From Symbiobacterium sp. (GTDB lineage Bacteria; Bacillota; Sulfobacillia; UBA995; UBA9673), in the NCBI GenBank assembly GCA_020725405.1, contig DYFB01000015.1, positions 32,157 to 96,156 on the forward strand: a DNA stretch of 64,000 nt, written 5' to 3'. Below the pieces are notes generated by a model. That model ran no database searches. It worked only from the letters and a program-made list of their open reading frames with translations, and was not told the origin of the DNA. Of this stretch, positions 42,201-45,954 are shown one piece after another. Both the position numbers and the translations under genes were made by a program. Position 1 is the stretch's first letter. Every line of letters begins with the position of its first letter.

Positions 42201-43301
42201 AACGTCGGGAAGCCCTCGTCAGGGGTCAACCCCCTCCGCGGTCAGAACAACGTCCAGGGAGCCTGCGACATGGGGGCTCTCCCGAACGTATATCCCGGCT
42301 ACCAGAGGGTGGACAACCCCGACGTCAGGCGGAAGTTCGAAGAGGCCTGGGGCTGTTCTCTCTCCCCCACGCCGGGGCTCACTCTGACCGAGATGTTCGG
42401 GGCGGCCCACGAGGGACGGGTCAAGGCGCTCTACATCATCGGCGAGAACCCGCTCCTCAGCGAACCCGACGGCCGGCACGTGCGAGAGGCTCTGGAGGCG
42501 GTCGAGTTCCTGGTCGTGCAGGATATCTTCCTCACCGAGACGGCCGAGCTGGCCGACGTGGTCCTCCCGGCTGCCAGCTTCGCCGAGAAGGACGGTACCT
42601 TCACCAACACCGAGCGCCGCGTCCAGCGCGTGCGTAAGGCCGTCGAGCCTGTGGGCCAGGCCAGACCGGACACCTGGATAGTCGCCGAGCTTGCCGGAAG
42701 GATGGGAGCCCCTGGCTTCCGGTCCACGGACCCGGCCGACGTGATGGCCGAGATAGCCTCGGTCACGCCGATTTACGCGGGGATAACCTACGAGCGCCTC
42801 GAGGCCGGTGGACTCGTCTGGCCCTGCCCTTCGCCCGACCACCCCGGCACGCCGATCCTGCACACCGAGAGGTTCCTGACCCCGAGCGGCAAGGGTCAGT
42901 TCGTGCCCCTTGAGTTCCGGCCGCCGGTCGAGACGCCCGACGACGACTACCCGTTGGTCCTGACGACCGAGCGCAGTCTCTACCACTACCACACGGGGAC
43001 GATGACGAGGCGGGTGGCCGGGCTGAACATCCTCAGGCCGCACGAGCTCGTGGAGATGAACCCGAAGGATGCGCTGAAACTCGGCGTCTCCGACGGCGAG
43101 ATGGTGAGGGTCGTCTCGCGCCGGGGCTCCGTGACGGCGAGGGCCAGGCTTACCGAGCAGTCTCCGCCGGGAGTGCTCTCGATGACCTTCCACTTCGCCG
43201 AGAGCCCGACCAACGTGGTCACGAGCCCGGCTCTCGACCCGGTGGCGAAGATACCCGAACTCAAGGTAGCCGCGGTCCGAGTGGAGCGGCTCAGCGGGTA
43301 G
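39222..43301 (+). CDS. Fused NAD(P)H-dependent formate dehydrogenase, 1360 aa: 2Fe-2S ferredoxin domain, then GltD-like FAD/NAD(P) oxidoreductase with Fe-S clusters, then 2x[4Fe-4S], then cysteine-type FdhA catalytic domain
   Basis: The N-terminus [10 protein letters not shown]...[17 protein letters not shown] is a NuoG-type 2Fe-2S domain. [12 protein letters not shown] plus [47 protein letters not shown] and [14 protein letters not shown] are GltD-like. [12 protein letters not shown] and [12 protein letters not shown] are two 4Fe-4S sites. [11 protein letters not shown]...[12 protein letters not shown]...[13 protein letters not shown] is the MopB catalytic domain. Confidence 0.85.
   Translation: [1359 protein letters not shown]

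Positions 43302-45954: not shown

Follow-up and report, generated by a model that had tools for sequence, protein, structure and literature searches.

Within a 64,000-nt stretch of contig DYFB01000015.1 from Symbiobacterium sp. (assembly GCA_020725405.1; the whole stretch is referred to here as the window, and positions are given in its numbering), a minus-strand gene of 887 codons was found to encode an AsnB-like (asparagine synthetase-like) amidotransferase joined through a helical linker to a C-terminal domain with the fold of CofE, the F420-0:gamma-glutamyl ligase. The protein carries three intact-looking catalytic sites, a glutaminase, a PP-loop adenylation site and a putative CofE-type nucleotide/metal site, in one rigid polypeptide. 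Judged from sequence and predicted structure, there is about an even chance that the gene encodes a conserved multifunctional amide-bond enzyme, distinct both from asparagine synthetases and from F420 ligases. Since neither half looks able to do its annotated job, the labels attached to the fused proteins ('asparagine synthase') and to the free forms of the C-terminal domain ('F420-0--gamma-glutamyl ligase') are both probably wrong, and such mislabelling can distort asparagine and F420 reconstructions in phyla represented only by metagenome-assembled genomes (MAGs).

Architecture of the fusion protein

An earlier note on this DNA, made by reading the sequence, had described the gene as a class II glutamine amidotransferase of the AsnB type fused to a CofE-like domain, and this assignment was upheld by profile, profile-profile and structure comparison. 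Each half was recovered by its own Pfam profiles (Asn_synthase/GATase and F420_ligase): GATase_7 (6e-48) and GATase_6 (2.7e-42) matched at aa 28–162, Asn_synthase (PF00733, 2.8e-72) matched over profile positions 1–354, i.e. in full, and F420_ligase (PF01996, 7.2e-16, 58.8 bits with a gathering threshold of 25) matched at aa 661–841, covering profile positions 2–150 of 218 only. The 887-aa open reading frame (ORF) of the note was borne out by the ORF listing and translation, and the strings that it had picked out (SGGLDS, DGDIVAVSEKVVAISQGR, PEDPDG, VVVVDANDLD and GQGLQQTPVAVLR) were all located in the translated protein. A full-length AlphaFold model based on 69 homologues had a mean predicted local distance difference test score (pLDDT) of 92.5 and a predicted template modelling score (pTM) of 0.92. 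In this model the linker contains helices at aa 612–626 and 631–638, and the pLDDT of this block is 87–94.

The protein nearest in the databases (P0121, from a Bacillota MAG) is 99% identical, and at least 118 further full-length homologues (850–960 aa, 56–99% identity), all containing the four Pfam domains, were retrieved by a full-length protein search. They are carried by Bacillota (including Thermaerobacter), Actinomycetota, Thermoleophilia, Chloroflexota and Dormibacterota, and are labelled throughout as 'asparagine synthase (glutamine-hydrolyzing)' in both NCBI and JGI. Any impression that the fusion is rare was overturned by this search, as it makes up a large and old family; because the family is already in the databases, the fusion is not new as a sequence discovery.

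The fusion is genuine and did not arise in assembly. Two neighbouring genes merged by an assembly error or a frameshift, a reading to which we assign a negligible probability, would be in line with the split or adjacent versions known from loci L039 and L041 and with the frameshifted tails of some database entries (P0390, P0391 and P0394), but the same unbroken architecture is shared by >118 proteins of different phyla, taken from independent assemblies, and is seen at 36 genome loci, and the junction is predicted as folded helices (pLDDT ~90) within a chain whose pTM is high as a whole. A frameshift-merged pair is excluded, since dozens of genomes have conserved the single ORF and the linker is confidently folded. 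The three database entries just mentioned (924–929 aa) have an AsnB-like part of the same Gln type as described below, followed by ~300 residues which are rich in Arg, Pro and Ala and give no PF01996 match; these tails resemble an out-of-frame CofE-like domain in high-GC DNA, as would be expected of assembly frameshifts or decaying copies.

Departures from asparagine synthetases and from CofE

The AsnB-like module looks catalytically complete. Its glutaminase set (Cys2, Arg45, Asn70-Gly71-Glu72 and Asp95, equivalent to C1, R49, N74, G75, E76 and D98 of E. coli AsnB) is intact and conserved in the 118 fusions, and Lys528, lying in the conserved motif RRWKVGF, is by this motif the likely equivalent of the ATP-site Lys of E. 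coli AsnB (K449). With E. coli AsnB and human ASNS (EC 6.3.5.4; 1CT9 and 6GQ3) the protein shares the two-domain layout, the N-terminal Cys, the R/N-G-E/D pocket, the SGGxDS motif and the K449-equivalent Lys, the template modelling score over the whole fold being ~0.8 when normalised to the target. It differs from these enzymes in having Gln in place of Glu348 (E. coli)/Glu364 (human), in the lack of conservation of D384, in failing the AsnB equivalog model NF006949 and in the C-terminal addition of 290 aa. The earlier description of a complete AsnB enzyme is thus accurate for the glutaminase and the PP-loop, but not for a Glu that is required for activity.

The replacement of this Glu is well defined, since Gln365 lies in a stretch (DGQGGDE, aa 363–369) that aligns without gaps to SGEGSDE (346–352) of E. 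coli AsnB and to the hydroxyamidotransferase TsnB9 (7YLZ). At least 98% of the 118 fusions have Gln at this position, as do all copies of the motif detected in related loci and the non-fused close homologues. Glu364 is conserved in known asparagine synthetases and needed for activity, and the human ASNS variants E364Q and E364A are inactive (PMC6748925). The Gln-type AsnB-like proteins that occur unfused are 608–636 aa long and 62–63% identical, and are found for example in Limnocylindria, which also carry a free CofE-like gene.

Of the NCBIfam models, TIGR01536 (asparagine synthase, glutamine-hydrolysing) was passed with 450 bits against a cut-off of 267, whereas the equivalog NF006949 was failed (266 against 499). 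The models for the amidotransferase of N-acetylglutaminylglutamine amide (NAGGN) synthesis (TIGR03104, 308 against 570), the PEP-CTERM amidotransferase (TIGR03108, 359 against 817) and the lasso-peptide cyclase (NF033535, 329 against 525) were likewise failed. The invariant Gln at the position of the synthetase Glu, together with these model scores, argues, short of proof, for an acceptor that is probably something other than free L-aspartate. In the PDB the best match of this half, both by sequence (5e-54) and by fold, is TsnB9, followed by E. coli AsnB (1e-45) and human ASNS. Reuse of the AsnB scaffold for other carboxylates is exemplified by beta-lactam synthetase, carbapenam synthetase, lasso cyclases, AsnO and the PEP-CTERM amidotransferase.

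The homology of the C-terminal domain emerged only with profile and structure comparison. Searched alone as a single sequence, the domain matched nothing among the PDB sequences; the family profile matched only the CofE of A. fulgidus (E 6.5e-6), hhalign aligned the domain to residues 12–222 of this protein with 95% probability (E 2.8e-8), and the fold comparison by structure returned the CofE fold, as the note had predicted. Five invariant motifs characterize the domain (SEKxVAIxQGR, GIGxG..ETMxLAIxE, IDGPT..PPYN, DAND and DNPLGQ..QTP). Between the strand following DAND and the last helix, where CofE has a domain-swapped beta-hairpin, ~25 residues are absent (hhalign and secondary structure of the model), and the chain stops ~11 residues after the QQTP motif, so that the C-terminal tail of CofE with Arg234 is absent. 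In CofE, the domain-swapped hairpin over the active site is involved in F420 binding, and Arg234 from the partner chain stacks on the deazaflavin (PMC10861534). The equivalog models for CofE were failed by wide margins (TIGR01916, 31.6 against 180.65; NF009810, 31.5 against 304; NF009809, 20.2 against 274), and the stand-alone orthologues score only 19.8–39.8 on such models. The CofE-like claim of the note therefore stands as regards the fold, but the domain belongs to a subfamily of its own, shortened and devoid of the F420-binding elements, whose members also stand alone in non-F420 phyla.

The divalent-metal/GTP-site residues of A. fulgidus CofE, reportedly D109, D150, T151 and E208 (Nocek et al. 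2007), allow a further comparison. D109 and D150 correspond to Asp793 and Asp839, both invariant Asp, whereas T151 and E208 correspond to Ala840 and Gln870, both invariant substitutions. CofE and FbiB's N-terminal domain (2PHN, 2G9I and 7ULD) are only 18–26% identical to the target domain, which, compared with these proteins, has neither the hairpin nor the R234 tail and has Ala for T151 and Gln for E208. To our knowledge, no activity other than that of CofE/FbiB has been characterised for the PF01996 fold. Within the subfamily, identity between phyla is ~50% and about fifty positions are invariant among 18 diverse members, and this strong cross-phylum conservation speaks for an enzyme whose substrate is universal. 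A stand-alone member (P0119) gave a weak match, of 20.6 against 350 bits, to TIGR04132, 'putative folate metabolism gamma-glutamate ligase'. As TIGR04132 represents another hypothetical CofE-like family, PF01996 has at least three branches, namely CofE/FbiB, TIGR04132 and the subfamily of the target.

These features bear on the possibility that the protein is an F420-related enzyme, in which F420-0 or one of its derivatives would be glutamylated by the CofE-like domain and amidated at its tail by the AsnB half. Such an enzyme would agree with the PF01996 match above threshold, with the CofE fold and with the name 'F420-0--gamma-glutamyl ligase' given to the stand-alone members in their sources, and some of the carrier phyla (Actinomycetota and Chloroflexota) make F420. 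However, it is made very improbable by the wide failure of the CofE equivalog models, by the absence of the hairpin and R234 tail which contact the deazaflavin, and by the presence of orthologues in the candidate phyla radiation (CPR), Bacteroidales, Thermotogota and Armatimonadota, among which we know of no F420 producers. The genomic context also speaks against it. As the note had remarked, no obvious F420 genes are nearby: neither cofC, cofD, cofG/H and fbiC nor F420-dependent families were detected among the large ORFs of the window (2–64 kb), the window contains no canonical CofE, and F420 families are missing from the list of 25 Pfam families for 101 genes flanking homologues at 82 loci (the best 80 genome loci plus two earlier ones, which are also the base of the fused and free counts given below).

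A genuine glutamine-dependent asparagine synthetase, in which a non-catalytic CofE-like domain would serve GTP sensing, regulation or oligomerisation, is decidedly unlikely in our view. It would be consistent with the passing of TIGR01536 and the asparagine synthase labels of NCBI and JGI, with the fully intact glutaminase and ATP-site residues, with the two presumed metal ligands that are now non-acidic residues, and with the attachment of the CofE-like domain to many unrelated enzymes (PlsY, ADK, HD, GNAT, M20 and TPR), which is often seen with regulatory modules. It is at odds with the invariant Gln365, located at the position whose change to Gln or Ala (E364Q, E364A) leaves human ASNS inactive, and with the failure of NF006949. 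Moreover, the CofE-like domain, being ~50% identical from CPR to Actinomycetota, having invariant active-site-like Asp, Asn, Arg and Gln residues and being mostly free-standing (71 of 150 representatives), shows a pattern typical of enzymes.

Co-occurrence of the two modules and the reactions they may catalyse

When one genome per species was scanned, at least 574 genomes proved to contain relatives of the C-terminal domain. Free-standing orthologues are present in Saccharibacteria, Parcubacteria, Microgenomates, Falkowbacteria, Bacteroidales/Prevotellaceae, rumen Clostridia, Thermotogota, WOR-3 and Armatimonadota, and the fused form is concentrated in Terrabacteria. An AsnB-like part lies directly upstream, fused or adjacent, at 36 of the 82 loci; there is no AsnB-like gene within up to 10 kb at 29, and the flanks are too short to judge at 17. 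The two parts are separate adjacent genes at locus L039 and lie in different frames at L041. A profile search of 1.84 billion cluster representatives gave 1522 clusters at E<=1e-3 and 366 at E<=1e-30. Among the 150 best representatives, 71 are free-standing, 39 have an AsnB-like part, which is the only partner recurring across phyla, and the remaining 40 are fragments or are extended in other ways. When the C-terminal domains were arranged in a neighbour-joining tree, the fused forms grouped mostly in one large clade and the free forms in a second one, and a very long branch separates all members of the subfamily from A. fulgidus CofE. The occurrence of the two modules in fused, adjacent and unlinked form is the classical pattern of two proteins taking part in one process. 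A derivation of the stand-alone forms from broken fusions, which gaps in the upstream gene calls had suggested, was rejected, as no AsnB remnant was found by tblastn at loci L001 and L002. In one Microgenomates MAG (L072, ~1712–4414) the fused frame is open except for an in-frame stop at codon 42, in the glutaminase domain, for which a sequencing error, a pseudogene or recoding are possible explanations. A plasmid search gave no match, and a phage search gave only two unannotated 'Bacteriophage sp.' fecal contigs.

The following reactions are proposed for such an enzyme: i) the glutaminase, with Cys2, would release ammonia from glutamine; ii) the PP-loop domain would use this ammonia to amidate a carboxylate activated as an acyl-adenylate; iii) with a nucleoside triphosphate, the CofE-type site would turn a small carboxylate into an acyl phosphate and link it to an amine; and iv) both sites would act consecutively on one molecule, either by ligation and then amidation or in the reverse order. 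For the third step a carboxylate other than F420 is likeliest, because the hairpin and the C-terminal Arg are lost and the core and two acidic metal-site residues of CofE, a GTP/Mn-dependent carboxylate:glutamate ligase, are kept. By analogy the amine would be L-glutamate, which is the default choice because what remains of the CofE site corresponds to the core handling nucleotide, metal and glutamate. Consecutive action on one substrate is suggested by the rigid connection of the modules and by their recurrence across phyla, fused or adjacent. The two-step amidation/glutamylation of a carboxylate acceptor put forward in the note is consistent with the evidence, although we infer, rather than observe, that the CofE-like domain is catalytically competent, that the modules share a substrate, in which order the steps follow and which amine is used. 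The closest logical analogue of ligation followed by amidation is the NAGGN system, in which an AsnB-like amidotransferase and a peptide ligase produce an amidated glutamyl dipeptide; its ligase, however, is an ATP-grasp/GNAT protein without the CofE fold, and its genes form a conserved trio, whereas no conserved partners were found here.

Several observations weigh against a multifunctional amide-bond enzyme of this kind. No characterised member, structure or paper dealing with the AsnB-like/CofE-like combination was found in the literature or the PDB, and the literature on the fusion, on 'CofE-like' proteins and on PF01996 bore out the remark of the note that it knew of no characterised protein with this combination. 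Clustering of the ORFs at 83 loci gave no conserved partner, the largest group (7 of 83) coming from related Thermoleophilia, and the neighbourhoods did not point to a pathway. About half of the subfamily stands alone with no AsnB-like gene within 10 kb, and at locus L083 a Gln-type AsnB-like protein is present alone, with no CofE-like gene within 14 kb; since each module also occurs by itself, their coupling is not obligatory. With the changes T151A and E208Q at the presumed metal-ligand positions, the C-terminal domain could bind a nucleotide without performing a ligation. Finally, the passing of TIGR01536 means that, on sequence, asparagine could still be formed with Gln at the E364 position.

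A narrower form of the proposal is an enzyme acting on the stem peptide of peptidoglycan, the AsnB half amidating a stem carboxylate and the CofE-like half adding an amino acid or activating another carboxylate. We regard it as unlikely, if deserving attention. AsnB homologues of Corynebacteriales, Lactobacillus and Bacillus are not asparagine makers but amidate meso-diaminopimelate (LtsA/AsnB1), which provides a precedent for the AsnB half, and the concentration of the fused form in Terrabacteria would fit. A further hint comes from a divergent sister branch, in which the CofE-like domain is fused to Amidase_3, a MurNAc-L-Ala amidase (MurNAc, N-acetylmuramic acid), in three 50%-identity clusters (P0367, P0375 and P0377), all of them among the 40 representatives that are fragments or extended in other ways. 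The order in these proteins is an N-terminal domain, Amidase_3 and the divergent CofE-like domain, the last with IDD for IDGP and NPLGNDDQQTP for NPLGQ..EQTP, and at locus L088 (1349–3046) the gene stands beside a second Amidase_3 gene and a gene for an Orn/Lys/Arg decarboxylase. All other fusion partners were met once each (PlsY, CDP-alcohol phosphatidyltransferase, HD_4, GNAT, M20, ADK, FTHFS, AhpC and TPR); PlsY and the CDP-alcohol phosphatidyltransferase, as membrane enzymes, would agree with a role at the envelope, but most of these singletons involve unrelated housekeeping genes (ADK, FTHFS, AhpC, HD_4 and TPR). MurJ, alanine racemase and Lgt, each at 2 loci, are sporadic neighbours, as is NamZ; these envelope-related neighbours, however, each account for only 2 of the 101 flanking genes, and the gene has no conserved mur/ddl/pbp cluster in its vicinity. 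The MurT/GatD lipid II amidotransferase is similar by analogy in that a carboxylate-activating ligase module and a glutaminase modify a free carboxylate, but its folds (Mur ligase and class I glutaminase) are unrelated, there is no sequence relationship, and the connection to peptidoglycan in the present case comes from weak contextual hints.

For the amide-bond enzyme proposed here, the context thus offers faint pointers to the cell envelope or the peptidoglycan stem peptide, or else to a small glutamyl-amide metabolite, as a NAGGN-like small glutamyl compound would fit equally well. In its most far-reaching form, the proposal is that the 'minimal CofE' domain represents a new phylum-spanning, F420-free family of nucleotide-dependent carboxylate:amino-acid ligases which, with the Gln-type AsnB, would constitute a three-site ligate-and-amidate machine making a glutamyl- or amide-modified metabolite or envelope component in Terrabacteria and CPR; we put this somewhat short of an even chance. 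A second and much more widely distributed branch of PF01996, with carriers in at least 574 species genomes, those of the genome-reduced CPR among them, would extend the fold of a non-ribosomal amide ligase to a new class of substrates. It would amount to a widespread amide-forming activity assembled from known kinds of enzyme (AsnB superfamily and CofE fold), to which the fusion offers a direct route: as the modules should share a substrate, one recombinant fusion protein could reveal the amide-forming pathway.

A gene for an AIR-synthase-related protein (~330 aa) lies directly upstream of the stand-alone CofE-like gene at four loci from anaerobic-digester MAGs (L087, 6010–6999; L032, 336–1328; L048, 543–1529; L067, 4191–5186), the distance being 1–2 nt at L087. 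The protein scores below the cut-offs of ThiL, HypE, SelD and PurM and is thus an uncharacterised member of the superfamily. It was considered as a partner and rejected, being confined to one Bacillota lineage with copies that are 73–75% identical.

The gene and its surroundings

The coordinates of the gene and its features are compiled in Table 1. The longest reading of the ORF extends over 43291..46032 (-), and translation from the ATG at 45954 gives the 887-aa protein beginning with MCGIVG. This ATG, and not the TTG at 46032, was taken as the start because of the GGAGG box and because Cys2 is required as the N-terminal nucleophile of the Ntn (N-terminal nucleophile) domain.

Table 1. Positions of the gene, its domains and motifs, and the adjoining spacer in the window
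Feature	Position (strand)	Residues	Remarks
Whole gene	43291..45954 (-)	887 codons + TGA stop	AsnB-like amidotransferase, helical linker, CofE-like domain
Ntn (class II) glutaminase domain	45355..45954 (-)	~aa 1–200	GATase profiles and alignment to E. coli AsnB
PP-loop adenylating (Asn_synthase) domain	44170..45264 (-)	aa 231–595	PF00733
SGGLDS PP-loop, ATP pyrophosphatase motif	45175..45192 (-)	aa 255–260	Nearly invariant in the family alignment
Gln365 codon in DGQGGDE	44860..44862 (-)	aa 365	Position of E. coli AsnB Glu348/human ASNS Glu364
Inter-domain linker	44035..44169 (-)	aa 596–640	Sequence poorly conserved; two predicted helices
Minimal CofE-fold domain	43294..44034 (-)	aa 641–887	
DAND	43429..43440 (-)	aa 839–842	Aligns with CofE D150-T151-N152-G153 (hhalign, hidden Markov model alignment)
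DNPLGQGLQQTP	43327..43362 (-)	aa 865–876	Aligns with CofE LLMGEGGDGIP; contains invariant Gln870
Shine-Dalgarno sequence GGAGG	45963..45967 (-)		8 nt 5' of ATG 45954; read from the sequence
Spacer between target and gltX	45955–46485		531 bp; short ORF fragments only, e.g. one ending in AALEAARALGVERLELAVLPE and a stop

The upstream gene, which had been described as a decayed TIM-barrel pseudogene, is in reality an intact gltX (46486–48090 (-); tRNA-synt_1c, 6e-94, and Anticodon_2). The spacer between it and the target gave no Pfam or Rfam match, the best Rfam score being at chance level (E 0.58). An upstream regulatory RNA was rejected, as no Rfam match at gathering thresholds was obtained anywhere in the window. 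On the other side, the 11-bp convergent overlap was confirmed, the plus-strand neighbour ORF ending at 43301 and the stop of the target lying at 43291. This neighbour is indeed a giant fusion, a 1376-aa protein of the Fer2/GltD-like/4Fe-4S/molybdopterin oxidoreductase type (39171–43301 (+)), uniting in one chain 2Fe-2S, GltD-like Fer4_20/Pyr_redox_2 flavoprotein, 4Fe-4S dicluster and formate-dehydrogenase-like catalytic subunit portions, and it forms a tandem with another molybdopterin oxidoreductase (36842–39085 (+)).

The large ORFs of the window, according to Pfam, encode housekeeping functions, including tldD/pmbA, pxpABC, spoIIP, miaB, mutS, mutL, miaA, hflX, lexA, gltX, AFOR, dinB and ndk. 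Beyond gltX lie a gene for an MFS_3 transporter (48217–49476 (-)) and one for an aldehyde:ferredoxin oxidoreductase (AFOR_N/AFOR_C, 49849–51705 (-)), the latter preceded by a small 4Fe-4S ferredoxin gene (51737–52162 (-)). A 5-oxoprolinase-type pair consists of LamB/YcsF (PxpA, 5862–6641 (+)) and a following single 672-aa ORF (6637–8652 (+)) which unites the CT_C_D and CT_A_B (PxpB/PxpC) domains. A LysM-bearing polysaccharide deacetylase of the peptidoglycan deacetylase type is encoded at 35522–36703 (-), ~7 kb from the target, and the presence of SpoIIP (9353–10468 (-)) indicates the genome of an endospore-forming, high-GC member of the Bacillota.

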